Origin: an uncultured Bacilli bacterium
GTDB lineage: Bacteria > Bacillota_I > Bacilli_A > RFN20 > CAG-631
Length of the DNA: 64,000 nt
NCBI GenBank assembly: GCA_947599835.1
Contig: CANQFQ010000005.1
Span: 1 to 64,000, forward strand
Reading direction: 5' to 3'
The position numbers and the translations under genes were made by a program. Below are positions 3,214 through 37,874 of this stretch, piece by piece. Each line of letters begins with the position of its first letter. Positions within the stretch are counted from its first letter, which is position 1. A model generated the notes under the pieces. The model ran no database searches. It worked only from the letters and a program-made list of their open reading frames with translations, and was not told the origin of the DNA.

Positions 3214-4417
3214 TGAAATCATTTCAACCCGTTTAGGGGGAAAAAACTTTTTTAAAACAAGTTATTATAAATTTGAAAAATGTAACCAATTGAAACAAAA
3301 GTACCTTAAAGAAAAAAAATTACCTTTAATCAATTTTGGCATTGGTGAAAGTGATCAAATGCCAGATTTAACGATTTTGGATGAACTTACAAAACAATCT
3401 TATGTTTATGAAAATAGAATCTATGCAGATAATGGCATCGATGCTTTTAAAATAGCGGCTAAAAAACATTTAAAAGCAATTTATAATGTCGATTGCGAAA
3501 AAAAGCATTTAAAAATTAATCATGTAATGGGAGCAAAAAGTGGATTAGTCATCATTCCTTTTTCTTTTATTAGTCCGGGGGATTACGTTATTTATACCAC
3601 TCCAGGATATCAAGTTTTACCCACGATAGCTCAATGGTTACAAGCCAAATTATACGAAGTACCTTTGTTAGAAGAAAATAATTATTTGCCAGATTTAGAA
3701 GCTATTCCTGAAGAAATTTATAAAAAAGCAAAAATTTTCTTAGTAAACTACCCTAATTCACCTACAGGAGCTATCGCAAATGTTGCTTTTTATCGAAAGT
3801 TAATAAAAAAAGCTTTAACTTATCATTTTTTGATTGTGAACGATTGTGTTTATGGCCCTTTAACTTATCATCAAAAGCCATTAAGTATTTTCAATTTAGC
3901 AAAAAGTGAAAAATGTTGCATTGAAATCCATAGTTTATCTAAAGCTTTCCATATGACAGGATTTAGAATTGGTTTTGTCGTAGCTAATGCAGCGCTGATG
4001 CATATACTCAAAGAAATTAAAGATAATATGGATTCTGGTCAATATATTCCCATCCAATATGCAGCCATTAAAGCCTATGAAAACGAAAAAAATATCATTG
4101 AAAAAAACAAAGCCTTTTTTTATGATCGATTGCTAAAAGTAAGTCAAATTTTAAATCGATATCATTTAACCTGTAAAGTCCCAGAAGCCACTTTTTATCT
4201 TTATGTAAAGGCTCCCAAAAATTTTAAAACCGGAGAAGAATTTTTTCTTTATTTATTGAATGAAGGTGGAATTTATACCATTCCGTGGGATGAAGTCGGC
4301 CCTTATGTGCGATTTGCGATGACTTATCATATCGAAGAAAATGAAGAAATATTTTATCAAACATTAGAAAATCGTTTAAAATTATTAACAAAAATAAAGG
4401 ATAATGACAATAATTAA
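3203..4417 (+). CDS. class I/II PLP aminotransferase, probable LL-diaminopimelate aminotransferase
   Basis: PLP-lysine motif 'SLSKAFHMTGFRIGF' and its position in a lysC-asd-dapF cluster. The DapL assignment is by context and inference. Confidence 0.5.
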   Translation: MKLDEIISTRLGGKNFFKTSYYKFEKCNQLKQKYLKEKKLPLINFGIGESDQMPDLTILDELTKQSYVYENRIYADNGIDAFKIAAKKHLKAIYNVDCEKKHLKINHVMGAKSGLVIIPFSFISPGDYVIYTTPGYQVLPTIAQWLQAKLYEVPLLEENNYLPDLEAIPEEIYKKAKIFLVNYPNSPTGAIANVAFYRKLIKKALTYHFLIVNDCVYGPLTYHQKPLSIFNLAKSEKCCIEIHSLSKAFHMTGFRIGFVVANAALMHILKEIKDNMDSGQYIPIQYAAIKAYENEKNIIEKNKAFFYDRLLKVSQILNRYHLTCKVPEATFYLYVKAPKNFKTGEEFFLYLLNEGGIYTIPWDEVGPYVRFAMTYHIEENEEIFYQTLENRLKLLTKIKDNDNN

Positions 4418-4433
4418 TATTGTCATTTTTTTT
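4404..4433 (+). terminator. rho-independent terminator after the dapL-like gene
   Basis: Perfect 8-bp stem atgacaat/attgtcat spanning the stop codon, followed by T8. Confidence 0.5.
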
Positions 4434-4454
4434 GAAAAATGGTACAATCAAAAC

Positions 4455-4640
4455 GCAATGAAACGAAGAAGTACTATCTAAATTCTTTATAGAGAGTCAT
4501 CGCTTGCTGGAAGATGATAAGAATATTTAGGAAATTAATCGTGGAGCAACAAGTTTTAATATAAAGGGCATGCTAAATGCATGAACTAAGGTGGTACCGC
4601 GCAATTTAGCGTCCTTAGATAAAGGGCGCTTTTTATTTAA
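4455..4640 (+). promoter_or_regulatory. T-box riboswitch leader controlling leuS
   Basis: Conserved T-box sequence 'AAGGTGGTACCGCG' at 4587-4600, then a terminator hairpin agcgtcc...gggcgct + TTTTT at 4606-4636. An AGAGA-containing stem I region lies upstream. An extended -10 'TGgTACAAT' sits at 4440-4448. Confidence 0.75.
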
Positions 4641-4656
4641 TAAGAGGTGAAATAGA

Positions 4657-7059
4657 ATGCAATATAATCATTTAAAAATTGAAAAAAAATGGCAAGAAAG
4701 ATGGGAAAAAGAAAAAATCTTCAAAACCGATGTGTATGATTTTTCTAAACCAAAATATTATATTTTAGATATGTTTCCTTATCCATCAGGTGCCGGTTTA
4801 CATGTCGGTCATCCTGAAGGCTATACTGCTACGGATATCCTTGCACGAATGAAACGCATGCAAGGTTTTAATGTTCTTCATCCAATGGGATGGGATGCCT
4901 TTGGTTTACCTGCTGAACAATATGCAATTAAAACAAATCATCATCCTGGAGATTTTACTTATAAAAATATTGCGACTTTCAAAAAACAAATTCAATCTTT
5001 AGGATTAAGTTATGATTGGGATAGAGAAATTGCTACCACCGATCCTAGTTATTATAAATGGACCCAATGGATTTTTACTAAACTTTATGAAAAAGGATTA
5101 GCCTATATTGAAGAAAAACCGGTCAATTGGTGTGAAGAATTAGGTACTGTCTTAGCCAACGAAGAGGTAATTAATGGGGTTTCTGAACGGGGTGGATATC
5201 CTGTCGTTCGTAAACCTATGAAACAATGGGTTTTAAAAATTACCGATTATGCTGAACGTTTATTAAATGATTTAGATGAATTAGATTGGCCTGCTGCCAC
5301 CATTGAAATGCAAAAAAACTGGATTGGTAAAAGTGAAGGTGCCATTGTGACTTTTAAAGTAGATCAAACCAATGACTCCTTCGATATCTTTACAACTCGA
5401 GTAGATACCTTATTTGGTGCTAGTTATTGTGTATTAGCACCCGAACATCCCTTAGTACAAAAAATCACAACAAAAGATTACCAAGAAAAAGTAGATGCTT
5501 ATCTTCAATTCTGTTCTAGCAAATCGGATATGGAAAGAACTGAATTAAATAAAGATAAAACTGGTGTTTTTATTGGAGCTTATGCCATCAATCCAGTGAA
5601 TAATAAAAAAATCCCAATTTACATTGGAGATTATGTTTTAGCCTCCTATGGCTGTGGAGCGGTTATGGCGGTTCCTTGTCATGATCAAAGAGATTATGAA
5701 TTTGCTAAAAAATATAACTTAGAAATGATTCAAGTTTTAGAAGGAGATGTAAGTACTCAAGCTTATGTGGATGATGGTGTTCATATCCATTCTTCTTTTA
5801 TCAACGGCATGCATATTAAAGAAGCCAAAGAAGCTATGATTCAATATCTAGAAAAAAATAAACTAGGTTATCGCAAAGTCAATTATAAATTGCGAGATTG
5901 GTTATTTTCTAGACAACGTTATTGGGGAGAACCTATTCCTGTAGTACATATGGAAGATGGAACGATTCATTGCTTAAGTGAAGATGAATTACCACTTGAA
6001 TTACCGGTGCTGGATGCATACAAACCTTCTGGAAATGGCGAATCACCTTTGGCTAATGCTACAGAGTGGTTAAAAGTTGAAATCAATGGTAAAGTCGGAC
6101 GTAGAGAAACAAATACGATGCCACAATGGGCCGGTTCATGCTGGTATTACTTACGTTATATAGATCCACATAACGATAAAATGATTGCGGATCCAGCGCT
6201 ATTAAAACATTGGCTCCCTGTCGATTTGTATGTTGGAGGAGCCGAACATGCAGTTCTTCATTTACTCTATGCACGTTTCTGGCATAAAGTTTTATTTGAT
6301 TTAGGCATTGTCGATACAAAAGAACCTTTTAAAAAGTTATTCCATCAAGGAATGATTTTAGGTGAAAATAATGAGAAAATGTCTAAATCTAGAGGAAATG
6401 TGATTAATCCAGATGATATCGTGAATGAATATGGTGCGGACACTTTGAGAATGTATGAAATGTTTATGGGACCATTAGAAGCTTCTTTGCCATGGTCAAC
6501 GAAAAATCTAGAAGGAAGTCGAAGATTTATAGAACGGGTTTATCGATTATTCACAGATCCTGAATATAGTTGTAAAATTACCGATGAAAACGATGGTTCT
6601 TTAGACAAAATCTATCATCGAACAGTAAAAAAAGTCACAACAGACTTTGAACATTTACAATTCAATACTGCCATTGCTCAAATGATGATTTTTATTAATG
6701 AAGCTTATAAAGCAAAAACGATTTATAAAGAATATGTTCTAGGCTTTATTAAATTAATGTATCCTGTTACCCCTCACATCTGTGAAGAAATGTGGGAATA
6801 TTATGGTCATACAACTTCCATAACTTATGCCGCATGGCCAACTTATGATGAAGATAAAACGGTCGACAATTTGGTCACAATCGCGGTTCAAGTTAACGGA
6901 AAATTAAGAACAACTTTACAAGTAGAAAAAGATACTCCATCCAATACTTTACAAAACTTAGCTTTGCATTGTGACGAAATTCAACGACATATTGATGGAA
7001 AACAAATCATCAAAGTCATTGCTATAGTGAATAAAATTGTCAATATTGTGGTGAAATAA
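4657..7059 (+). CDS. leuS: leucine--tRNA ligase
   Basis: HIGH-type motif '[12 protein letters not shown]', 'KMSKS' motif and an 800-aa length typical of bacterial LeuRS. Confidence 0.95.
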
Positions 7060-19826: not shown

Positions 19827-20570
19827 TTATTTTTTAATATTTACTTTACACTCTTCAATAAATTTTTGAATTGTGTTTGATGGGATTGCAAAATTCATAC
19901 CTTCGGCATCCGTTATTCCTGAAACTACCATGCCAATAACTTTTCCATTAGCATCGAACAATGGACCTCCTGAATTTCCACCATTAATAGCACAATCCGT
20001 CATTATTAAAGATTTTCCATTAACATTTCTTAATTTGTCACTAACAATACCTTCAGTGATACATGTTCCATACCCTAATGAATTACCAACAGCAAACACT
20101 TTTTGACCATTCTTTATTAAGTTTGAATCTGCAAAAGTTATATGATTTGTTTTCATTGATACATCCATTAATTTTAATAATGCAAGGTCTACACCAGACC
20201 CTCTACCCCCTTGATCATCGCCAATCGCAATCACTTTAGTTGTTATTTTTTTATTATTTAAAATAACAACAACTGTTTCTGCAATGTTGCTATTAAATGT
20301 GACAACATGGGTATTCGTAATTGCATATCCATCACTTGAAATCAAAAATCCTGAACCAGCAGCAGCTTCGCCATTACTCGATTGTGTAAAGATTTCTAAA
20401 ATGGCATCACAATTTTTTTCATAAACCATAGCGCCACTATCTAATTTTTCATTTTTAAATGATGGATTTTCATCATAATTATCTTTATCAATGGTGGAAC
20501 CACAAAAGTTACAAATATATTTATTATTAACTAGTTTCATTGTGCCACCACAAACTTTACAAATTGCCAT
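19827..20570 (-). CDS. zinc-ribbon + trypsin-like (HtrA/S1C-type) serine protease
   Basis: N-terminal 'CKVCGG...CNFCG' ribbon. Catalytic triad in 'TNTHVV', 'DLALLKL' and 'GNSGGPL'. No PDZ domain. Confidence 0.65.
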   Translation of the reverse strand: MAICKVCGGTMKLVNNKYICNFCGSTIDKDNYDENPSFKNEKLDSGAMVYEKNCDAILEIFTQSSNGEAAAGSGFLISSDGYAITNTHVVTFNSNIAETVVVILNNKKITTKVIAIGDDQGGRGSGVDLALLKLMDVSMKTNHITFADSNLIKNGQKVFAVGNSLGYGTCITEGIVSDKLRNVNGKSLIMTDCAINGGNSGGPLFDANGKVIGMVVSGITDAEGMNFAIPSNTIQKFIEECKVNIKK

Positions 20571-20591: not shown

Positions 20592-23372
20592 TTATTTTTC
20601 ATTTTTATAATCCCAGATTAGTTGTGATTTATGACTCCCATACCACTGTTTATCCCAATTAGATGGAGTCAATCCCAAAAATGGTTTTTTGCGTTCTAAT
20701 TTAACAATTAAGGAACTAGGGCATAATGAAAATATATCATATCCAATTTTTGAAACACTACTTGGGATAACTATACTTTTTAAAGAATCGCAATTATAAA
20801 ATGCATGAGAACCTATGCTTGATAATTTACTATTTGATTCAAAATTAATAGTTTGTAATGAGAAGCAATTAGAAAATGCAGATTCTCCGATACTTGTTAC
20901 ACTACTTGGAATAACTATGTTGGCTAATGAACTACAAACATTAAATACAGTTTTTCCGATACTTGTTAATTTACTATTTGATTCAAAATTAACAATTTTT
21001 AATGATTTGCAATTAGAAAATGCAGATTCTCCGATACTTGTTACACTACTTGGAATAACTATGTTGGCTAATGAACTACAATCATTAAATACAGTTTTTC
21101 CGATACTTGTTAATTTACTATTTGATTCAAAATTAACAATTTTTAATGATTTGCAATTAGAAAATGCAGATTCTCCGATACTTGTTACACTACTTGGGAT
21201 AACTATACTTTTTAAAGAATCGCAATTATAAAATGCATGAGAACCTATGCTTGATAATTTACTATTTGATTCAAAATTAATAGTTTGTAATGATTCACAA
21301 TTACAAAATGCATATTCTCCGATACTTGTTACACTACTTGGGATAACTATGTTTGTTATTGAAGTACAATCCCTAAAAGCCTTTTTATCTATAACTGCCA
21401 CATCATATTGCTTTCCATTAATAGTAATTGTTGATGGAATGACTACATCATTTCCTAACTGACTTGTATATTTACTTATTACTGCTTTCCCTTCTATAAT
21501 TAAATAATGTATTCCTGCTTGCTCTAAATAATTATTATCATTGATTCCCCAGTAAACAGCTTGATTATCTGGATTCCAATCATTATCCCAACCTTCTGGT
21601 TTTGATAAAGCTGCACAATAGATTGTTAAAGAATAGCAATCGTCAAATACCTCGTATCTTATACTTGTTACACTACTTGGTATTACTATGCTTTCTAAAC
21701 AATAACAATTCACAAAAGCGCGTATTCCTATACTAGTAACATCATATTGTTTTCCATTAATAGTAATTTGTGATGGTATTACCACATCATTTTTTAATTT
21801 ATTTGTATGCCCAGTTACTACTGCTTTGTTATCTATAATTACATAAATTATTCCATTTTGTTCTAAAAAATTATTTTTATTAATTTCAAAATAAACAGGG
21901 TTATGACCATAATTACATATTTTATCCCAATCTCTAGGTTTTGATGTTACTTCACAATATATTGTTAATGTACTACAATCACGAAATACAGAATCTCCAA
22001 TACTTGTTACACTACTTGGTATAACTATACTTGGTAAATATTCACATTTAGAAAAAGCCTCATCACCAATTTCTTTGACGCTACTTGGTATAATTATACT
22101 TTCCAATTTGCTTTTTCTAAATGCATTTTCTTCAATATAAATAAGACTCTTAGGTAGTTCAACACTGGTAACATCAGCATTTTCAAATGCAGATTTTTCA
22201 ATTGTTTCAATAAAATCAGGAATTTTAACTACTGTATCATGACCAATATATTTGATTAATGAAGACCCTTTTATATTGAATTTTCCTTCATCATACATTG
22301 GTTTACTAGAATGACTATTAATAATTATTTGCTTTTGAGCATTACTTAATTCACTGATTTGCTCTTGCATTTTTTTAGTTGCATTTTCTTGCTCTTTATT
22401 TTTTTCTAATTCTTTTTGCTTTTGTTCTTCTTTTCTTTTTTTACTTTCTGGAGTGTGACTCTCTACATACTGAACTATTTTATCTAAGCAACTTAAAGTA
22501 TGACTTCTATCAATACCTTGAAGTTTTTGGTTTCTTCCCGGTATTTTTTCGATAACTTCTCTATTATATATAATGACAATACTATCTGTATCTTTAGTAT
22601 CCTCGTTAATCATTTGCAAAAAACGTGAATATTCATTTTTAACCCATTTCGTCCGTAGATATTCTTCTTTGGAACAGACAATTAACATACATTCACTTTC
22701 ATATAAAGCATATAAAATTCTTGCTTCATAATCTGCACCTGTCGCATTTCTTAATTCTCTTTCTGATAAAAATGGTCTATAGCCTTTGCCTTTTAATTCA
22801 TAATACAATTCATCGGCAAATTGATAATCCTCAGTTTTATTTTGTTGATTCTCATCACTAACTTTTACACAAATAAAACAATCATAGGCCAATCCACTTT
22901 CTTTTAATTGATAGAATTCTTGTTGAATTGTATCAATTTCAGATGCTTTTTCTAAATATATTTTCTTTTGATTTTCTGTTGCATATAAAGTGGCTTTTAA
23001 ATAATTGATATCATCACTCATTTTTTTATTATTAATTTCGTGACATATAGGTTGTAAACGATTGTTTACCTCATCTTTTAGATATTGTATTTTATGGGTT
23101 GCTAAAGCCATACCAAAATAGGCTTCGGGTTCTGTATTATCTTCTTCTAATACTTTATTAAATGAATCATAGGCTTTATCAAATTCACACAAATCTAATT
23201 GATTGTTTGCTATTTGTAGTAATGTTTTTGTATTATTACTAGCATTTTCTTTAGGTAAAGTAAAAATACTATGGCAATATTTACATTCAATTATACCATT
23301 ATGGGCATTAGTTACATCTAAAGTATTTCCACAATTTTTACATACAAAATCATTTAATTGTGCACTCATCAT
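20592..23372 (-). CDS. zinc-ribbon + TIR-like domain + coiled coil + BspA-type leucine-rich-repeat protein
   Basis: Paralog of 17079-19805 in its first ~270 aa ('CKNCG...CKYCH' ribbon, TIR-like 'YDCFICVKVSDEN...CMLIVCSKEEYLRTKWVKNEY'). Then a K/E-rich coiled coil. The C-terminal half is 'IVIPSSVTSIGESAFSNC' BspA-like LRR units. Confidence 0.6.
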   Translation of the reverse strand: MMSAQLNDFVCKNCGNTLDVTNAHNGIIECKYCHSIFTLPKENASNNTKTLLQIANNQLDLCEFDKAYDSFNKVLEEDNTEPEAYFGMALATHKIQYLKDEVNNRLQPICHEINNKKMSDDINYLKATLYATENQKKIYLEKASEIDTIQQEFYQLKESGLAYDCFICVKVSDENQQNKTEDYQFADELYYELKGKGYRPFLSERELRNATGADYEARILYALYESECMLIVCSKEEYLRTKWVKNEYSRFLQMINEDTKDTDSIVIIYNREVIEKIPGRNQKLQGIDRSHTLSCLDKIVQYVESHTPESKKRKEEQKQKELEKNKEQENATKKMQEQISELSNAQKQIIINSHSSKPMYDEGKFNIKGSSLIKYIGHDTVVKIPDFIETIEKSAFENADVTSVELPKSLIYIEENAFRKSKLESIIIPSSVKEIGDEAFSKCEYLPSIVIPSSVTSIGDSVFRDCSTLTIYCEVTSKPRDWDKICNYGHNPVYFEINKNNFLEQNGIIYVIIDNKAVVTGHTNKLKNDVVIPSQITINGKQYDVTSIGIRAFVNCYCLESIVIPSSVTSIRYEVFDDCYSLTIYCAALSKPEGWDNDWNPDNQAVYWGINDNNYLEQAGIHYLIIEGKAVISKYTSQLGNDVVIPSTITINGKQYDVAVIDKKAFRDCTSITNIVIPSSVTSIGEYAFCNCESLQTINFESNSKLSSIGSHAFYNCDSLKSIVIPSSVTSIGESAFSNCKSLKIVNFESNSKLTSIGKTVFNDCSSLANIVIPSSVTSIGESAFSNCKSLKIVNFESNSKLTSIGKTVFNVCSSLANIVIPSSVTSIGESAFSNCFSLQTINFESNSKLSSIGSHAFYNCDSLKSIVIPSSVSKIGYDIFSLCPSSLIVKLERKKPFLGLTPSNWDKQWYGSHKSQLIWDYKNEK
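20760..21310. repeat. near-perfect ~144-bp tandem DNA repeats inside the LRR coding region
   Basis: Units starting at 20878, 21022 and 21166 are essentially identical (48-aa unit 'NFESNSKLTSIGKTVFNDCSSLANIVIPSSVTSIGESAFSNCKSLKIV'). The flanking segments 20761-20877 and 21195-21310 are also mutually identical. Confidence 0.7.
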
Positions 23373-23389: not shown

Positions 23390-25462
23390 TTAATTTCCAC
23401 TGCGATCATTCATTTGCTTCCATTCTAATAACTTTTCGATATCTTCTTTTTGAACAGAGGATGAAAAAGTTTCAAGAATAGAAGTAAAATCATTCATATT
23501 GATATATTTTTTAGTTCCACCAATTGCTCTTAAGGCAGAACGTTCTTCCACTTGATCTAAGAAGTTTGAAATATCAGAACCATTAAATCCATTCATTCTT
23601 TCAACTAAAGCATCAATATCGATATCATCTATGACTTCAACAATACCTTTTGCCTTCAATTTTTTAAGTCGTAATTCTAACATATATTTTCTAGCATCAT
23701 TATCCGGCAAACCCACATAAACGCGATTTCCAAAACGACCCGGACGAATAAATGCACTATCCACATCCCATGGTTTATTCGTTGCAGCGATGCAAAATAA
23801 GATGTTATTGCTTTTTTTACCATATTCTTCAATGCCTTGAAGTTGTGCTAATAATTCTGATCTTAATTGCTTTGCATATTGGGATTTAGTGTTTTTAGGT
23901 GAAATGGCGTCCATTTCATCAAAATAAATCACAGCACATGGAAATTCCCTTGCTTGACTGAATAAAGCTCTAACTGCTTTTTCCGTATTTCCTGCACCTT
24001 GATTTAATAAATCGGAAGGTTTAACCGAACAAAACTTAGCATGAATTTCATTAGCAATGGCAGCAGCAATCATTGTTTTTCCTGTTCCTGGAGGACCATA
24101 TAAAAATAAACCTCCTCCACTTTTACGAACATAACCTTCAAAGGCCTTCGGCTCTTGTAAAGGTAATAACACTTTAACTTTTACAACATTTTTAACCTCT
24201 TCAAGCCCAGCAATATCATCAAACTTAATGGTGGGCAATTGATCCCAATTAAATTTAAATAAACTATTGTCAGTATTATAATTTTCATCTAACACTTTAT
24301 CTTCTGGTTTACTATTTTTATCATTATGATCAACACGTTCCTCACGAGGTATATTATTATCTTTACGAGATATATTAATATTTAAATCTTGAACACGGAT
24401 AAGGGCGATTTCTTCATTAGATATTTCTTTTAATCTAGCAATGCGTTTGGATTGATTCGTTATTATATTTTCAAACAGATTTCTAACATCTCGGCCATTA
24501 CCAAAATTTCTATCTCGATTTTGGTACAAATCATCAAAATATTGTTTTAAAACTGCTTTTGCTGCAGGTTCTAAAACATATTGATTTTTATCGCATAAAT
24601 TGATGAAAATTTGATATAAATCATCGCCATTATAATCTTCAAAATGAATATAATTCTTAAATCTTGAACGTAATCCTGGATTAGATTGAATAAACTTTTC
24701 CATCAAGTTTTCATAACCAGCAATAATAACAACGAGATTATCTCTTTTGTCTTCCATGTCTTTTAAAATTGTATCGATGGCTTCATTTCCAAAATCTGTA
24801 GCGCCTTTATTGGCTAAAGAATAAGCTTCATCAATAAATAAAACACCCCCATATGCTTTATCTAAAACCGCTTGCGTTTTAAGTGCCGTTTGTCCCACAT
24901 AACCAGCAACTAATTCTTGGCGGTCTACTTCAACTAATTGACCTTCACTTAAAATTCCAAGTGCTGCATAAATTGAAGCCATTAAACGGGCTACAGTTGT
25001 TTTTCCTGTTCCAGGATTTCCAGTAAATACTAGATGATAAGACATATCCGGAATTGACATGTTTCTTTCTTTTCTCATCTTAAAAACTTTGATTTGGTCA
25101 ATCCAGTCGTGAACTTGATTTTTAACTTTTTCAAGACCTATTAATTCATCTAATTGTTTTAAGGCTTCTTCTAATGAAACCTTTTCGTTTTTGATGACTT
25201 TTATATCGTTTGTAACTTCTTTATTTTTTTCTACCGGCTTTGGTTCTTTTTGGATACTATCCGCAAATTGAATGATGCTTTTCGCTCTTTCGTATCTTGC
25301 TTTTTGAAGTTCACCTTTCGTTTCTTTTGCCATATTTAACATTTGTTCTGCGGCTAATAAATAATATCTTTTAGCAAGCATCTTATCGCCTTTTTCTAAA
25401 CATTCTTTGGCTTTTTTATAATATAAATTAAAGGTCTCGTTAAGTATACTAATGTCTTTCAT
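23390..25462 (-). CDS. MIT-domain protein with two AAA+ ATPase domains (Vps4/SpoVK-like)
   Basis: N-terminal three-helix MIT-like region 'YYKKAKECLEKGDKMLAKRYYLLAAEQMLNMAKE'. First AAA of CbbX/SpoVK type 'FTGNPGTGKTTVARL'. Second classical AAA 'LYGPPGTGKTMIAAAIANE...YFDEMDAI'. Confidence 0.7.
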   Translation of the reverse strand: MKDISILNETFNLYYKKAKECLEKGDKMLAKRYYLLAAEQMLNMAKETKGELQKARYERAKSIIQFADSIQKEPKPVEKNKEVTNDIKVIKNEKVSLEEALKQLDELIGLEKVKNQVHDWIDQIKVFKMRKERNMSIPDMSYHLVFTGNPGTGKTTVARLMASIYAALGILSEGQLVEVDRQELVAGYVGQTALKTQAVLDKAYGGVLFIDEAYSLANKGATDFGNEAIDTILKDMEDKRDNLVVIIAGYENLMEKFIQSNPGLRSRFKNYIHFEDYNGDDLYQIFINLCDKNQYVLEPAAKAVLKQYFDDLYQNRDRNFGNGRDVRNLFENIITNQSKRIARLKEISNEEIALIRVQDLNINISRKDNNIPREERVDHNDKNSKPEDKVLDENYNTDNSLFKFNWDQLPTIKFDDIAGLEEVKNVVKVKVLLPLQEPKAFEGYVRKSGGGLFLYGPPGTGKTMIAAAIANEIHAKFCSVKPSDLLNQGAGNTEKAVRALFSQAREFPCAVIYFDEMDAISPKNTKSQYAKQLRSELLAQLQGIEEYGKKSNNILFCIAATNKPWDVDSAFIRPGRFGNRVYVGLPDNDARKYMLELRLKKLKAKGIVEVIDDIDIDALVERMNGFNGSDISNFLDQVEERSALRAIGGTKKYINMNDFTSILETFSSSVQKEDIEKLLEWKQMNDRSGN

Positions 25463-25531: not shown

Positions 25532-26104
25532 TTAGTTTCCCATTTTCTTTTTTAGTTCAGCTAATTCCTTTTCAATCATTGTGTCTGTCATATTATCTGA
25601 AGTAACTTCATTACCAATAAGGTGCTCTAATTCTTCTTTTTCCTCTGGTGATGAACTAGCATTTGTTTCAAATGCAGATGAAGTTTCTTCCATGAAGTTT
25701 TCCATTTGCGTTGCTTGAATTTCAGCACCAATCATGGCTTCAGAGAATTGTTTTTGAACTTTATCAAATTCTTTTTCTTTTGTCAGTTTTAACATATCTT
25801 TACTTAAAATACTCATTCCCTTTAGAAATTCTTTCGTCATTTGTGTCATATCTTTCATTTGCGAAGTAATTTCAAAATTTAATTTCATTTCATAAATTCT
25901 TCTTTGCTGAGTAATGACCATTTTAAGTCCAGAAATCGCTAAATTATATTGCGCAGTTAAACCTTTTTCTTTTGCTTGTTTTCCAGCATCAATATAGGTT
26001 TGCTTTTGCTTTTCTAACTGTTCGATTTGTTTATTCATCGCATTAATGGTTTGTTTTATTTGCATTCTTTTGGCAATTTCTTTTCTATGATTCATAGCTA
26101 GCAT
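25532..26104 (-). CDS. Snf7/ESCRT-III-family protein with C-terminal MIM1-like motif
   Basis: Helical hairpin pattern 'GLKMVITQQRRIYEMKLNFE...KEFLKGMSILSKDM...FDKVQKQFSEAM' matches the Snf7 core. Acidic linker. C-terminus 'DTMIEKELAELKKK' fits the MIM1 consensus (D/E)xxLxxRLxxL(K/R). Its start overlaps the upstream stop (TAATG). Confidence 0.55.
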   Translation of the reverse strand: MLAMNHRKEIAKRMQIKQTINAMNKQIEQLEKQKQTYIDAGKQAKEKGLTAQYNLAISGLKMVITQQRRIYEMKLNFEITSQMKDMTQMTKEFLKGMSILSKDMLKLTKEKEFDKVQKQFSEAMIGAEIQATQMENFMEETSSAFETNASSSPEEKEELEHLIGNEVTSDNMTDTMIEKELAELKKKMGN

Positions 26105-26709
26105 TACTCCTTCTTCGTTTCAACATTTTTTTGTTTTTCATTAACTTCATATAATTCTTGTTCACTAGCTACTTGGTCTTCTTGTTCAAGCATAGCAAGT
26201 AAAGCATTATCTTGTTCATTCATACCATAAATGGTTTCATTCTTTTCATAACTTTCTTCAATAGCGTTAAATAATTCATCAGAATCAGTTAATATATCTT
26301 CTGCGGCGATTCTAATATTTAATGCTTGATTTAAAAATTTGGCCAAGCCTTTTTGATCACTTAATAGCTTATTTAAAGGCATTTTCGTGTTATTTTTAAA
26401 GAATTGATTATCATCAATTGCATTTTTTAAACGGTTTAATAATTGCGAATTATAAAGTAAATACAAAATTCTTTGTACATCTTGTTCGCGTTCTTTTTTT
26501 AAAACATTAATTTTCTTTGCATATAAAAGTTTAATGGCTTTATCGGTTTCTTTACGACCTTTTTCCATTAATTCATTGACTTTATTTTGTTTTTCCAATA
26601 ATCCATCTTCAAGTTCTTGAGATTGCTTATCTAGTTGACAAATGGCATCGACAACCTCTTCACGTGTTAATTTTTGATATTTGCTTTTAAATGGCCACAT
26701 ATCCATCAC
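26104..26709 (-). CDS. Snf7/ESCRT-III-family protein (second paralog)
   Basis: N-terminal 'MWPFKSK' resembles CHMP N-termini. 'VVDAICQLDKQSQELEDGLLEKQNKVNELMEKGRKETDKAIKLLYAKKINVLKKEREQ' matches the Snf7 alpha1-alpha2 hairpin. Acidic C-terminal region. Confidence 0.5.
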   Translation of the reverse strand: MMDMWPFKSKYQKLTREEVVDAICQLDKQSQELEDGLLEKQNKVNELMEKGRKETDKAIKLLYAKKINVLKKEREQDVQRILYLLYNSQLLNRLKNAIDDNQFFKNNTKMPLNKLLSDQKGLAKFLNQALNIRIAAEDILTDSDELFNAIEESYEKNETIYGMNEQDNALLAMLEQEDQVASEQELYEVNEKQKNVETKKE

Positions 26710-27036
26710 CTATAATTTTGAATTTCTTTCTGCTATTAATACATAAAGTTCTTTGATCATTTTAGCTGTTTTTTCAGCATCATCTTTTTCTTTATATAAC
26801 CATTGCTTGAAGTCATCAATTGCGTTGGCGATTTTTTTATCTCCATCATAAACTTTAGATAAATCAGAAGCCGTTAAATATTGAAGTTTTTCTTGAAGTT
26901 TTTTTAATTCTTCTTTGCAAGTTGCATTACTAGTTAAACTAATTAAAACATCAATCATGACCGCATTTTTTGAAATAAGTTGTTGATCTTCACTTCTTTG
27001 CGTACTTTTTAATTGTTTCTTTTGAAAATAATTCAT
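26710..27036 (-). CDS. small alpha-helical protein of unknown function (operon member)
   Basis: ORF 26710-27069. I prefer the ATG at 27034-27036 (protein starts 'MNYFQKK'), which overlaps the stop of the upstream gene by 4 nt. Predicted helical. Confidence 0.4.
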   Translation of the reverse strand: MNYFQKKQLKSTQRSEDQQLISKNAVMIDVLISLTSNATCKEELKKLQEKLQYLTASDLSKVYDGDKKIANAIDDFKQWLYKEKDDAEKTAKMIKELYVLIAERNSKL

Positions 27037-28106
27037 TTTTTGTCCTCCTCTGTTAATTTTGCTCCACATTCACTACAAAAAATTGCACCGGCATCATTTT
27101 TATGTTTACATTTTGGACATACAATCGGCTCTTTAGATACTCTAAAGCCACATTTAGGACAGAATTTATCACTTGCTTTATAAGTGGCACCGCATTTAGG
27201 ACAAACGTTATGGTGTGCACTCATTTCTTTTTGATTACCCATGATTTTTAAAACTTCATAATAAGCTTGTTTATCTCTAAGTTCTAATTCTCTTAAATAT
27301 TTTTGCTTTTCCCATTCTTTATCATTTAAGCGTTCTATTTCTTTTAAATATTCTTTTAATTGTTCTTGTTTTCTTTTTTCAGCCGCTTCTAATTCTTCTT
27401 GTTTTTTCTTTTCAGCAGCTGCAGTTTCGATTGCTGCCATTTCATCATCTTGTAAATGAATATCTTCAATAATAAAGTTAACAAGACTAATGCCCCATTC
27501 TTGGATAAATTTGTCGCTTAAAAGTTTGCCAATTTCTTCAGCAATTCTTTTCTTATTTAAGGCAAATTTGTCATAAGTCATTTTTTCACTTGTAACTACT
27601 TTTAAGAAGCAATCCGCAAATTCATTGATAACTTCACCAGAAAAACGTCTTTGGAAATCTTCAAGATTAAATTCTTTTTTAGATCCAACTACTTTTCTAA
27701 AAAATTGTTCATGATTAGAAATACTAATACCAAATTGTCCTCTCGCACCAATGGTGATGACTTTATTCGAAACTTCATCGCGATATCTAAACCGATTAGG
27801 CGTTCCCCATAAAATAATCACATTAGTTTCTTTAGGCATATAAACAACTTCCACTGAAATGCCTTTTTTCCAGTTTTTTATTTCGTTTTTACTTTCAAAA
27901 ATAGCATATGTACCACTTTCATAACTCTTAGCATTGCCACCGCCAAGGATGAGCATTGCCTTATGCGTATAAGGAACTTCTAATAAAGCCTTTTTATCGT
28001 TGACAACGCCATTTACACGCACAAATAAAATGTTATTATCATCCACACTAGCCTTACATAAATTTTGTTCAAATTTGATAACTTGGACTTTTTTATTAAA
28101 TATCAT
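27033..28106 (-). CDS. SPFH/band-7-like (YdjI-like) domain protein with C-terminal triple zinc ribbon
   Basis: C-terminus has three CxxC...CxxC pairs ('CPKCG...CPKCG...CPKCK...CSECG'). The middle is a K/E coiled coil. The N-terminal ~200 aa beta-rich domain resembles the Band_7_1/YdjI family found next to pspA in Bacillus; that assignment is inference. RBS AAAGGAG upstream. Confidence 0.45.
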   Translation of the reverse strand: MIFNKKVQVIKFEQNLCKASVDDNNILFVRVNGVVNDKKALLEVPYTHKAMLILGGGNAKSYESGTYAIFESKNEIKNWKKGISVEVVYMPKETNVIILWGTPNRFRYRDEVSNKVITIGARGQFGISISNHEQFFRKVVGSKKEFNLEDFQRRFSGEVINEFADCFLKVVTSEKMTYDKFALNKKRIAEEIGKLLSDKFIQEWGISLVNFIIEDIHLQDDEMAAIETAAAEKKKQEELEAAEKRKQEQLKEYLKEIERLNDKEWEKQKYLRELELRDKQAYYEVLKIMGNQKEMSAHHNVCPKCGATYKASDKFCPKCGFRVSKEPIVCPKCKHKNDAGAIFCSECGAKLTEEDKK

Positions 28107-28687
28107 AATGCACTGTACTCCTTTAGATAAATAGTATATTTCGCCTTTATAATAACCCCCCCCGCTTTATGTCAACTTAAAATTACATTTTTCGACATTG
28201 GTGTTACAAAAAGCATTCAAAGACCTTATATAGACTACATTTGGAAGCTATTCCATCCTCATTATTTTTAGAAAAAGCAACACAAAAAACGGAACTTTGG
28301 ATTCAAAAAGTGAATGCTTAGAACTCTATTTAATCATTAAAAAAATGACACTCATTGGCCTAGAATTGAGCGTATCATGGCTAGTGAAAGTATAGGTAAT
28401 CGCCTATAATCAAACGTAAGATTCTTATCAAAAAGCAAGTTTATTTTGTCTTATGATTTCTATTTAAATATACGATTATATCGGTAATTTTAAAAGTTTT
28501 CAAAATAACGTGTGCCTCATTTTTATGCATCAAAGAGGTCTATTCAAAACAATGATGAAATTCCTTCATCATAACCGCTATTTCCTTTTTTTTGAAGCAA
28601 TTTAATATCATGTTTTCCTTTTTTTTGAAGTTTTTTAGGCGTCTACTTGCCACTTTTTTGAAATTGTGATATTATTTCATTGTAAGG

Positions 28688-32472: not shown

Positions 32473-33348
32473 TTAATCCTCCTCGATTTTATGATAAATG
32501 CGTACATATTCAACTTGCATCTTTGCTTCAGTAAAATCATCTGGTGGTAAAATATTACCATCAAAATTACCACCGACTGCCATATTTAGTAAAATATGAA
32601 AATCCCAATCAAAAGGTGCAGTTAAAGAATCTTCATCAGCCATAGAAAACCATTTTGGGCCTCGCGTAGTTTCATGATTATCCATGGTAAAAAATAATTC
32701 ATCATCCACATACCATCGCATTTCAAGTTCTTCCCATTCCAAAGCATAAATATGAAATTTTTCGATAGAATCATTATTATCTCTTATAATATGACTTCGT
32801 GTTTGATAGGTTGAAGAACCTATGGCTCCATAATGCAATGCAGCACTAGTCATATCTTTGACTCTGCCTCTAGCTTCCATAATATCAATTTCGCCTGAAC
32901 TTGCCCAACTACCATAAGGCGTATCGCTTTCAGGTAACATCCAAAAAGCTGGCCACATTCCTTGAATGGCAGGTAGTGCAATCATCGCTTCTATTCTACC
33001 ATATTTGGTATGCACTTTATTCGCCGTTGAAATTCTAGCTGAGGTGTAATTTTTTCCTTCTACCGTTTCTTTTTTTGCTTGGATAATCAATTTACCATCT
33101 TTTAAATAAAGATTTTCTTTTTGATAGTATTGCGCTTCATTATTTCCCCAACCAGGATTATTGTATGAAGACCCATCGCCTAACATATAATTCCAATATT
33201 CTTCATTCAGCGTTTCACCATCAAACTCATCTTCAAAAACAATTTCGTATCCTTCAGGAATCGGATGATTTTGATTTGAAGATTGTTTTTTATTTGTACA
33301 AGAAACAAGTAATAATCCAATACTTAATAAATAGAAATACTTTTTCAT
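32473..33348 (-). CDS. GH16 beta-glucanase lipoprotein (second copy)
   Basis: Lipobox 'LLVSC'. GH16 'GEIDIMEA' and 'WPAFWML'. Confidence 0.7.
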
Positions 33349-36300
33349 TTGCTAACCATCACATCAATTCTATGAATTTTGCCTTCTCGAATATCACTTG
33401 CTATATGAGAAGGAATGACTTCGTACACTTGTTGGTTGATTTGATAAGTTAATTTAATTTTATGATGATAGAAAACATCTAACATCTCTTCATTATGATA
33501 AACAATCGTACAAGTATTAAATAATTTAAAGCTCACTGTCTTATTTTCATCAAATAAATTTTTAGCTAAGGTAGGTTCTAAGACAAAACTTAATTGATGA
33601 TTTATCATCCTAAAAGGTTGCTTACCCACAAATAAATAACATAATATTTGCATAAATTCAGCATTTGCTCCAGTAAGTCTTGCAAAAAATCCTTGACCAT
33701 GTAATTTTGAATCTGGATTACAAGTAGGAACAATGAAAGAACTATTTTCTAATGGATTACGTCCATAAACTTTAGGATCCATAAAACAAGGTAAATTCGT
33801 TTTTATTTCTTGATAAAATTCCTTATCATAACCCGCACTGAGCAAACCTAACAAATATTTAAATGTCATGTGCAAGAAATTACATTCTCTTTCAAGCCAG
33901 CCCTTGGTGAAAGCATGGATTCTACCAATTTCAAAATTCGTATTTTCTAAAGATGCACATGTTTTATAAATTTTCAATCTTTTATCGAATAAATCGCTAT
34001 TTTTAATGGCGATATAATCTTTTTTAGAAAAGTATGCTTTACCTAATTTTAATAATCTAGCTGAAGCTTCTAAAAAAGGTGGAACTTGCTTCAACTGAAA
34101 AGCTTTCGGTTGAATGGTATGATGAGAAATATCATAATCGCTCATTTCATAATATAAATAGGTAGGAAGAATGCCATCTACACGATTTTCTTTTAATGTT
34201 TGAATTGATTTTTTCAGTAATTGAATAAATCGATGAAGCAACATTTGAATCTCAACGATAGAAATGGCGATTTTAGTTCCTTCAATACCCTCATAAATTT
34301 TTTTACGATATTTTTCTTTACTTGTAGCAACAAGATCCCAATAAGTAAAAGCATCGATTTTATTTTTTTCTTTTAAATTTAATGCTTTTTTAATTTCTTC
34401 AAGTAATTCAAATTGTTCTTCAAATAAGAAAATACTTTCTTTATCATAATTGCCTAACAATTGTAAAGTAAATTGAATCAATCTAAATAATTCGATAGTT
34501 TCAGATATTCCTGAACCAAATAAACCAGGAAGCCCGTTCATAGCATCATTCCAACCCGGTTTATCACATTCCATTTCGATACCTAATTGTAATGAATCTA
34601 AACTAGCAAAATTGATTAAAATAAGCCCTATGATTTTACTAATTAAAGGTAATTTTAAAATTTCATTTTGACTATTTCTTTGCCAATCTGTACCTGTTTT
34701 GACTTTTGGAAATTTAAGTGCATTATATTGCCTAATGCCATTATTTGCGGTTTTTACATATTTATCTTTTCTTGCTAGGATTTGTACATGACTATTAAAA
34801 TAAGGATATTCCTTATTTAATAAATCATTGATTTTATCGGGATAAATCGCATAATAATTTTGCAACAAATCCACATTATAAGTCCAATGATCAATCCAAT
34901 AGCCTTCAGAAAAATCAGCACAGATTTCTTGATAGCAATAGCTTAAAATTTGATTAAAATACGTATTCACTAAATGATTTTCTAAATCTTTAGCATCTTT
35001 TAATAAGGTATATAATTCACTTGGTTCAAAGCCCTTATGGAATAAAGAAATAATTTGATCCTTTAAGGAACTATCGATATTTTTTAATACTTCATCAAGA
35101 TTTACATTGTTTTTTAAGTAAAATTTCGGTGGTCTAACCGTTAGTGGATTTTTTCCATCTAAGCCAATTAATGAAAAGAAAATATCAATATTATATTCCT
35201 TTACAAAAGGATAAAAATATAAATCACTTCTACGATTTTGATTGACATCACGAAAGTTTCCACAACCGGATGAATAATATTTGGATGGAATTTCAAAAGA
35301 ATTGTAATCTCTTTCCATATCCCCATGTTTTCTTGAAAAAACATAGTAAATTTCTTGTTGACTTAATTGAATAGGAAAACCGCCCCTTAAATTATTATCT
35401 AAAAAACATTGTTTAGCATATAAATCAAATAAAGGATTACTAGTTTTCACATTTAAGGGTTGTAATAATGCATCTAATAAAGTTTCATTTTCCTTAAATG
35501 CAGCAGATAAACGAGCATAAGTGCTTTGCTTTGTTACATCTAAAAAGATATCCAAAGTATCAAACATTCCATACACAGTAATAAAAGAATAACTTTCATT
35601 AGGTTTTAATGTTTTCTTAACATAATTAAAAGCACATGGTAGTTTATTTTCATCTTGTTGTGCATAATTTAAAAAATCTGATTCTGCTAAATTTTTGAAT
35701 CTTAAAGGTTCAAGTAACGATTTGTCATTTCCAAAAATCATTTCTAAATCGACAATCGGATATAACTTATGATTGTCTTTATCTAGACTAATAAAACCGT
35801 TTCCAACGATTGTTTTACTTACTTCACTATGATCTGCAGTTGAAGTTTTAAATTTTACAAAGGGTGCCATGTTTGAACGATTAAAAATTTCACAATAAGC
35901 ACTCATTAATGAAACTAATTCTTTATAACAATAATTAGATAGTCCATGTGGAAAAAAGATAGGTAATCCATCTAAAACGGTAAAAGTTTCAGAATTGATC
36001 GATAAATTCTTAATCGTAACTTGACGAATTAATCCTGCATAATTTTGATGAGGAACGGTAGTATAACTCACTTCATAAGAAAACAAAGCATTCTTTTCTT
36101 GAATCGTTAGATAAGTATTCGTAAAACGCATTTTTTGCGTTTTATTTTTTTTAAAGAAAGGAGTATAAACTTTATTATTGACTTTAATAAAACTGCGAAA
36201 AGATTTGATTGGAATGTTTTGATAAGCTAAATTAGCACTATCAAAAGGAGTTATCGGTGTTTCTTTAGAATTAACCCCAAAGCCACCTAAGCATTGCCCA

Positions 36301-36431
36301 ACATTTGCATAAAATGCCCACAATGGTTTGCCATCGATACCTGCGATTGCAGGTAAAAAACTTGCAAATGTTTTAGCGTTTTGATAATCCTCAATCACAA
36401 ATTCTTTATTTTGAAAACTATAACTACTCAT
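33345..36431 (-). CDS. large cytoplasmic glycoside hydrolase/phosphorylase-like protein (possible beta-1,3-glucan phosphorylase of the GH94-related families)
   Basis: 1028 aa with no signal peptide, embedded between GH16 genes and the ABC transporter. The function is assigned by size and context only. Confidence 0.3.
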   Translation of the reverse strand: MSSYSFQNKEFVIEDYQNAKTFASFLPAIAGIDGKPLWAFYANVGQCLGGFGVNSKETPITPFDSANLAYQNIPIKSFRSFIKVNNKVYTPFFKKNKTQKMRFTNTYLTIQEKNALFSYEVSYTTVPHQNYAGLIRQVTIKNLSINSETFTVLDGLPIFFPHGLSNYCYKELVSLMSAYCEIFNRSNMAPFVKFKTSTADHSEVSKTIVGNGFISLDKDNHKLYPIVDLEMIFGNDKSLLEPLRFKNLAESDFLNYAQQDENKLPCAFNYVKKTLKPNESYSFITVYGMFDTLDIFLDVTKQSTYARLSAAFKENETLLDALLQPLNVKTSNPLFDLYAKQCFLDNNLRGGFPIQLSQQEIYYVFSRKHGDMERDYNSFEIPSKYYSSGCGNFRDVNQNRRSDLYFYPFVKEYNIDIFFSLIGLDGKNPLTVRPPKFYLKNNVNLDEVLKNIDSSLKDQIISLFHKGFEPSELYTLLKDAKDLENHLVNTYFNQILSYCYQEICADFSEGYWIDHWTYNVDLLQNYYAIYPDKINDLLNKEYPYFNSHVQILARKDKYVKTANNGIRQYNALKFPKVKTGTDWQRNSQNEILKLPLISKIIGLILINFASLDSLQLGIEMECDKPGWNDAMNGLPGLFGSGISETIELFRLIQFTLQLLGNYDKESIFLFEEQFELLEEIKKALNLKEKNKIDAFTYWDLVATSKEKYRKKIYEGIEGTKIAISIVEIQMLLHRFIQLLKKSIQTLKENRVDGILPTYLYYEMSDYDISHHTIQPKAFQLKQVPPFLEASARLLKLGKAYFSKKDYIAIKNSDLFDKRLKIYKTCASLENTNFEIGRIHAFTKGWLERECNFLHMTFKYLLGLLSAGYDKEFYQEIKTNLPCFMDPKVYGRNPLENSSFIVPTCNPDSKLHGQGFFARLTGANAEFMQILCYLFVGKQPFRMINHQLSFVLEPTLAKNLFDENKTVSFKLFNTCTIVYHNEEMLDVFYHHKIKLTYQINQQVYEVIPSHIASDIREGKIHRIDVMVSK

Positions 36432-36446
36432 TTTCGAATACCTTAA

Positions 36447-37874
36447 TTATTCTTTAATTGATGTAGCAATTAATGGATATTTTAAAGTTGGATAAGCATT
36501 TGCAGCTACATTCCAAATGGTTGTATCAAATGAAGCATAAGTAGCAACATCCTTTAATTCATCTGCCGTTTTTGTAAAACAATTGGTAACGCTTCCTAAA
36601 GGTGTTTCCCCACTTGATTGTTTAAGTTCTGGTAAATGTGTTTGCGTGAAATAAACTTCTCTTGCACTACTTTCATATGGTGTTTGTTCAAATTTAATAG
36701 CTAAACTATCTGCAATGGTTCCCCAAGTTTTTCCAGCAAAAGCATAAACACCATTGGTTTGACTTTGATTACTATCGATTTCTTTGCTTGATGTAGCAGA
36801 TACACTACCATCATCATTATATTGTTGAAGAATACGATCCACATTTGCAAATTTCCACCAAGGTTGATTGTTATCCGGAGCCGTTGCAGGATGATCCCAA
36901 CCATTTCCACTTTTACCAATATAATTTTCTGAATAATCCGTAAATTCATTAGGTACGAAAAGATTACTTGTTAGAGAAACAACATTTCGAATAACTCCGC
37001 TGCCAGCAACGATTCCAGCAACAGCACCCATATTGCAATCATTATCATAGAAATGTGTGCCCATTTGTGCACTACAAGTTTCAGTAACAATACAATTTTC
37101 AATCAAACCACTGCAATTACCGGCAATCACGCCAACAATGGTTCTTCCTCTAACTTTAATATTATCAAAACGCACATTACGAACAATGCCACTACTACCA
37201 ATAATTTGGAATAAACCAATATTATCTCCGTTTTGATGGCATTCTTCCTTAAATAAGCCATTATGATTGTAAACATCTTCAGATGAAATCGTTGAATTAC
37301 AATAATAAACTTGTGCATTTTTTACGGTATAACCATTTCCTTCTAAAATGCCATGGAAATAATCATTTCTAATATCTGTTTCTTCATAATATTTGCCTAG
37401 AGGTTCAAAATTAGAAATAGAGGATAAGTCAATATCATTACCTAACACATAAATTCCTTTAAGATTATTATTAATATCTTGAAATTCTTGTGCCGTTTTG
37501 ATTACTTTGGTTGCGATAATGGCAGGAATTTGCGTCCTTGAATTATCACTAAAAGTGACTTGAATCGTTTTTTCACCACTACCAATACTGGAAAAGAAAT
37601 CTTTAGAAATCGTTAAAATTCCATTTTTAAAATTAAAACTATCCTCTTCTGATTTTGCTCTACCACAACTTAATAAAGTAATTTTTTTGGATTTTTGATT
37701 TTCTAATTTTACCGAAACATTGCTAGGATTTGAAGTATCAAAAACGAGTTTTTCTTCATAAATGATATCCCCGCTATGAATGGTTGGCTTGTTATCATTT
37801 TTACTTTTATTACAACTTGCCATAGTTGTTAATAAAAATAAAGACATTATAATTGTAGATAATCTTTTTTTCAT
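36447..37874 (-). CDS. surface lipoprotein with parallel beta-helix-like repeats
   Basis: Lipobox 'TMASC'. Motif 'FHGILEGNGYTVKN' and G/N/V-rich repeats 'GIVAGSGVIRNV' suggest a right-handed beta-helix. Shares the 'DGNGYTI' motif with 41277-43718. Confidence 0.4.
   Translation of the reverse strand: MKKRLSTIIMSLFLLTTMASCNKSKNDNKPTIHSGDIIYEEKLVFDTSNPSNVSVKLENQKSKKITLLSCGRAKSEEDSFNFKNGILTISKDFFSSIGSGEKTIQVTFSDNSRTQIPAIIATKVIKTAQEFQDINNNLKGIYVLGNDIDLSSISNFEPLGKYYEETDIRNDYFHGILEGNGYTVKNAQVYYCNSTISSEDVYNHNGLFKEECHQNGDNIGLFQIIGSSGIVRNVRFDNIKVRGRTIVGVIAGNCSGLIENCIVTETCSAQMGTHFYDNDCNMGAVAGIVAGSGVIRNVVSLTSNLFVPNEFTDYSENYIGKSGNGWDHPATAPDNNQPWWKFANVDRILQQYNDDGSVSATSSKEIDSNQSQTNGVYAFAGKTWGTIADSLAIKFEQTPYESSAREVYFTQTHLPELKQSSGETPLGSVTNCFTKTADELKDVATYASFDTTIWNVAANAYPTLKYPLIATSIKE

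Follow-up and report, generated by a model that had tools for sequence, protein, structure and literature searches.

A predicted MIT-type domain fused to two dissimilar AAA domains in a conserved bacterial operon: a candidate ATPase of an ESCRT-III/Vps4-like module

A 2025 review states that bacteria appear to lack a Vps4-like ATPase to regulate the dynamics of ESCRT-III (PMC7619361). SPFH proteins have been linked to ESCRT-III both for B. subtilis and for ESCRT loci of archaea (PMC10936438; the link is also made in PMC7619361), and some of these archaeal loci encode SPFH + zinc-ribbon proteins (PMC10936438). A survey of PSP systems (PMC11237479) reports an "inactive classical AAA + classical AAA" protein adjoining PspA in Clostridium sp. 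BNL1100, and a "MIT + Vps4-AAA" protein adjoining a TPR+TM(s) protein (6TM in the text of the survey; TM, transmembrane) in Opitutus, where snf7 is displaced. Here we analyzed a window of 64,000 nt (contig CANQFQ010000005.1 of an uncultured Bacilli bacterium, positions 1 to 64,000; low GC, about 30%), by which we mean this whole stretch of DNA. In the window, an operon of eight closely spaced genes, all on the minus strand, includes a gene at 23390–25462 whose product combines an MIT-like N terminus with two AAA domains, referred to below as D1 and D2. We estimate at roughly 60% the probability that the product of this gene is the ATPase of an ESCRT-III/Vps4-like module in bacteria. The operon is undescribed in the literature that we searched, and an earlier description elsewhere is possible. 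The ATPase gene and its parts are as follows.

23390..25462, minus strand: ATPase gene, 690 amino acids (aa), MIT-like domain, SpoVK-type AAA (D1) and classical AAA (D2); from the open reading frame (ORF) listing, domain matches and homologues
25253..25462, minus strand: MIT-like three-helix bundle, aa 1–70, with helices 2–24, 27–47 and 50–69 as predicted by AlphaFold2
24365..25177, minus strand: D1, SpoVK/CbbX/EccA-type AAA with AAA_lid_6, aa 96–366; from family matches and motif conservation
Within D1, minus strand: Walker A GNPGTGKT, pore loop GYVGQT, Walker B LFIDEAY and arginine finger NPGLRSRF; translation checked
23393..24244, minus strand: D2, classical AAA, aa 407–690; from family matches and motif conservation, translation checked
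Within D2, minus strand: Walker A GPPGTGKT, non-aromatic pore loop NQGAGN, Walker B YFDEMD, second region of homology (SRH) RPGRFG and C-terminal helix SVQKEDIEKLLEW

That the ORF is an artefact is ruled out by its many homologues: a database search gave full-length homologues at 64–71% identity in more than 120 clusters, and an identical copy of the protein is present in public databases. A first-pass annotation, made from the letters of the sequence, had read an MIT-like region, a "GNPGTGKTT" AAA and a "GPPGTGKT" AAA with an SRH in this gene, and domain and fold evidence place all three where it had put them, with the Walker A motifs at aa 148–156 (D1) and aa 456–463 (D2) and the classical AAA core spanning about aa 400–683. 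Its remark that the arrangement is "more like EccA/SpoVK hybrids" applies to D1, which is of SpoVK/CbbX type, but not to D2, a classical AAA. Because D1 and D2 are only 27% identical over 80 residues, they fall into different AAA families and not into one ordinary family. An internal duplication is likewise ruled out, by this identity together with the different lid families of the two domains.

Judged by its family matches, D1 is a member of the SpoVK/CbbX/EccA clade and an orthologue of none of those three. It shares with them the AAA core, AAA_lid_6 (Pfam PF17866, 70.1 bits, above the 24.3-bit cut-off), the GxPGTGKT Walker A, the NPGLxSRF motif and the Y-V-G pore loop, and a PDB sequence search matched it to CbbX (E 2.6e-57) and EccA1 (E 1.6e-53). 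Over aa 91–366, its NCBIfam scores were 295 bits for SpoVK (TIGR02881), 283 bits for EccA (TIGR03922) and 242 bits for CbbX (TIGR02880), each under the respective equivalog cut-off (423, 467 and 459 bits). Unlike SpoVK, CbbX and EccA, D1 shares its chain with an MIT-like domain and with an AAA of another clade, and the window operon lacks genes for Rubisco, type VII secretion or sporulation. A search of 1.84 billion representatives yielded only two informative relatives, P0248 and P0295, because it was dominated by many proteins of up to 2,233 aa with 3–8 tandem SpoVK-type cassettes, which scored higher than the full-length proteins truly related to the window ATPase.

In PDB sequence searches, D2 was closest to VAT and to p97/Cdc48 D2. 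The window ATPase thus resembles Cdc48, p97 and VAT in having two AAA cassettes per chain and a D2 nearest to theirs, but its D1 is non-classical and its N-domain is a predicted three-helix bundle, not a double-psi barrel. The classical AAA ends in a helix that may correspond to the Vps4_C helix of Vps4 and CdvC: SVQKEDIEKLLEW reached 21.1 bits with Pfam Vps4_C (cut-off 21.3, E 3e-4, aa 653–683), and PF09336 (Vps4_C) is precomputed in several homologues of the ATPase. This helix does not discriminate, however, because p97 D2 presumably carries a similar SVS..DI..YE motif. Approximately 104 residues remain after the D2 "GLPD" motif, a length that would leave little room in the small subdomain for a beta-domain insertion, which in eukaryotic Vps4 is the Vta1-binding site.

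In an alignment of 121 family members, the Walker A lysine, Walker B Asp-Glu, sensors and arginine fingers of D1 and D2 are invariant or nearly so, and because the catalytic residues of both domains are conserved, both rings are probably ATPases. In the same alignment, the aromatic pore loop is kept in D1 only (G-Y-V/I-G-Q-T). The D2 pore loop, N-Q-G-A/V-G-N, is invariant or nearly so and places a glycine at the position of the classical Trp/Tyr/Phe, whereas Vps4 and CdvC have K-W/Y-x-G. Because D2 lacks an aromatic pore loop, D1 is probably the threading ring. A comparable case is p97, in which the D1 ring is the one without an aromatic pore loop and serves as an assembly or auxiliary ring.

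At its N terminus, the window ATPase has a domain that is predicted to be MIT-type. AlphaFold2, run on an alignment of 20 N termini, gave a three-helix bundle (pLDDT 90.6), and the closest structures to the predicted fold were the MIT domains of archaeal CdvC, MITD1, calpain-7, VPS4A and katanin; TPR and designed bundles were interleaved with MIT among the structural matches, as expected for a simple fold. By sequence, Pfam MIT had no match in the window ATPase N terminus at E<=10, and a profile of the 20 N termini found nothing significant among PDB sequences, with a Sel1 repeat as its best match (E 0.097). Some homologues of the ATPase have sub-threshold Pfam MIT matches: MIT is the best match of the P0295 N terminus (E 0.018) and is marked "weak" for P0430. 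An unrelated TPR region, which the first-pass annotation had named, along with a single ordinary AAA family, among the outcomes that would speak against its proposal, does not describe this domain, since its predicted fold is nearest to MIT and related proteins align with the CdvC model from residue 4–5 as far as the C terminus.

Those related proteins come from operons of the same kind with other ATPase architectures. At one locus (L034), the last gene of the same operon encodes a protein of 385 aa, in which a homologous N-terminal domain is followed by a single classical AAA (pore loop KWVGE) and a C-terminal helix. Residues 5–373 of this protein align with positions 4–364 of the 370 positions of the NCBIfam CdvC model, and because so much of the model is covered, the alignment crosses the MIT region. 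The first single-domain PDB match of the L034 protein was CdvC/Vps4 (4lcb). With the CdvC model (NF041006, cut-off 650 bits), it and the N-terminal half of P0295 scored 220–230 bits, with CDC48 scoring equally. A search with the L034 protein returned more than 120 clusters with lengths of 368–385 aa or about 480–520 aa; PF04212 (MIT) is precomputed in 9 among the 120 single-AAA relatives listed, and PF09336 (Vps4_C) in many. The loci of these single-AAA relatives carry the same operon, and the sister proteins keep the aromatic pore loop KWVGE/D. About one-quarter of the single-AAA MIT-ATPases have a C-terminal extension of ∼110 aa that looks beta-rich (477–502-aa variants; for example, L039 8001–9458 and L041 8001–9485).

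A third architecture, MIT followed by two classical AAAs, is found in P0295 and L073. The N-terminal (MIT) domains of the variants are 41–56% identical (56% between L034 and the window protein), identity is 71% between P0295 D1 and the L034 AAA and 69% between P0295 D2 and window D2, whereas window D1 is only 23–27% identical to any classical AAA domain. Distinct MIT-headed full-length proteins in the fetched loci comprised 36 SpoVK hybrids, 39 single-AAA proteins and 1 tandem classical protein, counts that are biased by the queries used for sampling. Because sister operons carry MIT + AAA or MIT + two classical AAAs, the window ATPase would be a Vps4-like protein in which the first motor was replaced, and because the same N-terminal domain heads CdvC-aligning proteins that lack the SpoVK module, that module would be the newcomer. 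The simplest history would run from MIT-AAA to MIT-AAA-AAA and then to displacement of the first AAA by a SpoVK-type module. If so, the window ATPase represents a rare event in AAA evolution, in which a Vps4-like threading ring was swapped for the module of another clade and the original classical ring was retained with a disabled pore loop.

As in Vps4 and CdvC systems, the window ATPase gene adjoins a gene for an ESCRT-III-like protein, p190, with an amphipathic, basic-ended C-terminal helix.

25532..26104, minus strand: ORF of p190, ESCRT-III/Snf7-like; likely gene 25532..26095, starting at the fourth codon, 187 aa
25541..25585, minus strand: p190 C-terminal MIM1-like helix DTMIEKELAELKKKM; from the translation and column conservation

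Several results together suggest that p190 is a divergent ESCRT-III-like protein. Scanned singly, 28 of 30 p190 family members matched Pfam Snf7 (PF03357) below threshold, more often than they matched any other model; the best of these matches (E 1.1e-4) is collinear, running from residues 11–178 of the protein to positions 4–163 of the 171-position model. None of the 445 p190 homologues from a database search carries a Pfam annotation, p190 had no match in NCBIfam, and PspA_IM30 was matched by none of the small operon proteins. AlphaFold2 placed p190 helices at 2–44, 47–104, 109–144, 150–165 and 170–186 (pLDDT 71), which is predicted to give the ESCRT-III helix topology of a long alpha1–alpha2/3 hairpin, alpha4, alpha5 and a C-terminal helix. 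When this model was compared by Foldseek with 350,542 PDB chains, ranks 1–18 all belonged to the ESCRT-III superfamily (probability up to 0.96), including CHMP1B, CHMP2A-CHMP3, Asgard ESCRT-IIIB, CdvB, Vipp1 and PspA. An hhalign comparison of the p190 profile with a CHMP2A sequence was collinear but weak (P 0.0075, probability 5%) and serves as a lead only.

The C terminus of p190, IEKELEELKKKM, is conserved through the broad family (columns I174, E177, K183 and K184), and 46 of 58 diverse homologues have the MIM1-like motif. We call this tail a MIM on the basis of its likeness to the MIM1 consensus, (D/E)xxLxxRLxxL(K/R).

The remaining genes of the operon, and a candidate promoter, are listed below.

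27033..28106, minus strand: the operon's first gene, SPFH protein (Band_7_1) carrying a coiled coil and, at its C terminus, two zinc ribbons; from Pfam
26710..27069, minus strand: p119, small helical protein, likely start at 27036; from synteny and sequences
26104..26709, minus strand: p201, helical protein, likely start at 26700; conserved in homologous operons
20592..23372, minus strand: zinc-ribbon + TPR-like + TIR + BspA-type leucine-rich repeat (LRR) protein, 926 aa; Pfam TIR_2 and LRR_5
19827..20570, minus strand: zinc-ribbon + trypsin-like (HtrA/DegP-type) serine protease without PDZ, 247 aa; Trypsin_2 101 bits, TIGR02037 138 bits
17079..19805, minus strand: zinc-ribbon + TPR-like + TIR protein with C-terminal TM helices, 908 aa, last gene of the cluster; Pfam TIR_2
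28475..28503, minus strand: best promoter-like site, TTGAAA-17-TATAAT (11/12), upstream of the SPFH gene; candidate

The SPFH protein matched Pfam PF13421 with 58 bits (cut-off 24) as well as Zn_Ribbon_1 and DZR; Band_7_1 is presumably the family of B. subtilis YdjI. The pairing of an ESCRT-III-superfamily protein with a zinc-ribbon Band_7_1/SPFH protein is shared with PspA-YdjGHI of B. subtilis and with archaeal SPFH-containing ESCRT loci. In contrast to the PspA-YdjGHI case, p190 is Snf7-like and has no PspA_IM30 match, and psp systems have no MIT-AAA partner.

Hydrophobic-basic N termini (MWPFKSKY, MCFFKKK and MGLFKSK) are found in p201, in p119 and in the p190 proteins of single-AAA operons (L034 and L038–L041). 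In p201, which starts with MWPFKSKY, an N terminus of this kind is found in 57 of 59 homologues and a conserved C-terminal motif, "IYG..D..LLAMFE", in 50 of 59. In p119, the N-terminal motif is found in 26 of 41 homologues, and because a TM-like helix takes its place in 7 of 41, these N termini may act as a membrane anchor. Their likeness to ESCRT-III N termini such as "MGLFGK" is a lead only. Neither Pfam Snf7 nor a profile search of PDB sequences with HMMER linked p201 to ESCRT-III, an hhalign comparison of the p201 profile with a Snf7 sequence gave nothing, and hhalign detected no mutual relation among the p190, p201 and p119 families with narrow or broad alignments.

The fusion of the MIT-like domain with D1 and D2 is conserved, as is its context. 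Scanning genomes with the N-terminal alignment located 35 loci, every one of them in a metagenome-assembled genome (MAG) of gut-type Clostridia or Christensenellales, and scanning metagenomes with the p190 alignment contributed a further 62 loci of the same organisation. Synteny is kept in about 100 fetched loci, with a conserved order of SPFH, p119, p201, p190, AAA and trypsin-like genes, into which TIR proteins are variably inserted. This conserved, chromosomal operon family pairs a divergent Snf7-like, MIM-tailed protein with a predicted MIT-AAA ATPase. At two loci (L044 and L045, both at 4346–6040), SPFH and trypsin-like protease are fused in a protein of 564 aa, so that the two are physically linked there.

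From these observations, we infer the function of the system, including disassembly activity and MIT–MIM binding. p190, possibly with p201 and p119, would polymerise on the cytoplasmic membrane at or near the SPFH scaffold, and a dependence of the polymer on SPFH would parallel the reliance of PspA on the SPFH protein YdjI in B. subtilis. The MIT-like domain would dock onto the MIM1-like helix IEKELEELKKKM of p190, and the ATPase would assemble as a two-tier hexamer. In such a hexamer the roles of D1 and D2 may be split: D1, as the sole tier with an aromatic pore loop (Y-V/I-G), would thread and unfold subunits, and D2, whose Walker A/B, sensor and arginine residues are intact but whose pore loop carries a glycine instead of the aromatic residue, would form an assembly or auxiliary ATPase ring. 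In sum, the polymer would be remodelled or taken apart at the expense of ATP. Through its TIR and protease partners, this machine might be coupled to a stress or immune response at the membrane, a speculative step that is suggested because most of the longer homologous operons encode TIR proteins and the protease. The first-pass annotation had raised the idea of a distinct lineage of ESCRT-III disassemblases, and the ESCRT-III-like p190, its MIM1-like tail, the SPFH gene and the sister MIT-AAA proteins lend that idea independent support from context; the activity itself is our deduction.

Several observations weigh against assigning the window ATPase to an ESCRT-III/Vps4-like module. D2 scores alike with the NCBIfam models of CDC48 D2 (195 bits), CdvC (190 bits) and PAN (189 bits), and D2 alone reached 175 bits with CdvC. 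The SRH of D2, ATNKPWDVDSAFIRPGRFG, reads RPGRFG. We take RPGRFG to be the Cdc48/FtsH type, and RRRF to be that of Vps4, katanin and spastin. The window p190 scored only 6.7 bits with Snf7 (gathering score 27.3), the Foldseek E-values of p190 are weak (0.08–0.9), and p190 HMMER profiles, narrow and broad, found no ESCRT-III among PDB sequences. Neither p201 nor p119 has detectable kinship with ESCRT-III or with p190. Finally, TIR proteins and a protease are constantly present, which speaks for a function that goes beyond the remodelling of membranes.

Compared with Vps4 and CdvC themselves, the window ATPase is alike in its predicted MIT-type three-helix bundle at the N terminus, and the sister-operon proteins have the size and domain order of CdvC (about 370–385 aa). 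It differs in the SpoVK/CbbX-type AAA between MIT and the classical AAA, in the lost aromatic pore loop of D2, in CdvC-model scores of 190–220 bits (190 for the window protein) against the equivalog cut-off of 650, in its bacterial host and in its SPFH, TIR and trypsin-like partners, with no CdvA or ESCRT-II. Because of the inserted AAA, the disabled D2 pore loop and the sub-threshold scores, the ATPase falls outside Vps4/CdvC in the strict sense. It most likely works like Vps4. The PSP-survey partners are similar in being bacterial tandem AAA or MIT + Vps4-like ATPases tied to the ESCRT-III superfamily or to archaeal Vps4. In contrast to them, window D1 is SpoVK-type with a fully conserved active site; the window ATPase has an MIT-like domain, unlike the tandem protein of Clostridium sp. 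BNL1100; and its neighbour is the Snf7-like p190, which is not PspA and is not displaced by a TPR-6TM protein, with SPFH, TIR and protease genes present. That the window ATPase belongs to the survey's "inactive AAA + AAA / PspA" dyad is ruled out by its intact, conserved D1 active site.

Going further, one may propose that gut Clostridia (Christensenellales and relatives) have a genuine ESCRT-III + Vps4-type system that is nucleated by SPFH, wired to TIR and protease effectors and equipped with an ATPase diversified into tandem forms; we hold this broader proposal tentatively, at a little less than even odds. [quoted passage not shown] Testable questions would then be how bacteria take apart ESCRT-III-type polymers, whether Vps4 originated before or outside the archaea or was transferred, and how an SPFH scaffold, an ESCRT-III polymer and TIR/protease effectors work jointly.

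The strongest alternative is that the operon is a TIR-based conflict (anti-phage or abortive-infection) system, in which the AAA protein would serve the TIR and protease effectors as a sensor, activator or chaperone, much as IetA does in IetAS or TRIP13 in CBASS, and the coiled-coil proteins would be scaffolds and no remodelling polymer. We consider this unlikely. Zinc-ribbon + TPR-like + TIR proteins are encoded in most of the longer homologous operons, at times with their gene placed between those of p190 and the AAA protein, and the trypsin-like protease comes after the AAA gene in most loci. The two TIR proteins of the window have in common an N-terminal zinc-ribbon + TPR-like + TIR module of ∼400 aa and differ in their C termini. 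Both keep the W-V-x-N-E motif, the glutamate of which may be the catalytic residue of TIR NADases. BrxL-like genes (BrxL_N + BrxL_ATPase) also occur in some loci (L039 9467–10906, after the MIT-AAA gene; L041 10277–11716, after the trypsin gene). PADLOC matched D2 to IetA (138 bits) and TRIP13 and the protease to RT-Protease, but these matches are generic: those of D2 are weaker than its CDC48 and CdvC matches and, because of this, reflect AAA similarity only, and no PADLOC model matched the small proteins or either TIR protein. Moreover, the operon has ordinary chromosomal flanks in the window and at two other loci (L002 and L039), no homologue was found in 2.9 million viral contigs, and a conflict system leaves the MIT domain, the ESCRT-III-like p190 and the SPFH partner unexplained. 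The two readings are compatible, in that an immune system could have an ESCRT-like machine as its executive arm.

Quite improbable is a SpoVK/EccA-like chaperone with a TPR/Sel1-like N-terminal adaptor and an extra AAA ring, its likeness to Vps4 and ESCRT-III being superficial because helical bundles and coiled coils resemble many things: D1 is the top-scoring domain (SpoVK 295 bits, EccA 283 bits), EccA likewise pairs a helical-repeat N-domain with a CbbX-type AAA, the best PDB match of the N-terminal profile is the non-significant Sel1 repeat and the p190 sequence evidence is sub-threshold, but the same N-terminal domain (41–56% identity) heads SpoVK-free proteins that align end to end with CdvC, eighteen ESCRT-III structures at the top of the p190 Foldseek ranking are hard to reach by chance, and the operon lacks type VII secretion and sporulation genes.

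Some further features of the window and of the homologous loci were observed. Promoter-like sites are as many in the window as chance expects, and because of this the TTGAAA-17-TATAAT site upstream of the SPFH gene is only a candidate. Opposite the TIR-LRR gene, on the plus strand at 20815–21231, lies an ORF of 138 aa with near-identical repeats; because these mirror the LRR units, it is almost certainly an artefact of repeat DNA and no gene. The flanks of the window operon encode a PBP1-type enzyme, YitT, a DNA alkylation repair protein, a DUF4143 ATPase, GH16 enzymes and an ABC ATPase. Two minus-strand ORFs near the GH16 and ABC genes (33345–36431, 1028 aa; 36447–37874, 475 aa) had no Pfam match at E<=1e-4. 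The chromosomal position of the operon is not conserved between genomes: at L002 it lies near spo0A and dxs, and at L039 (1–5511) it follows directly downstream of a cell-division cluster encoding MraZ, an RsmH-like methyltransferase, a POTRA (FtsQ-like) protein and FtsZ.

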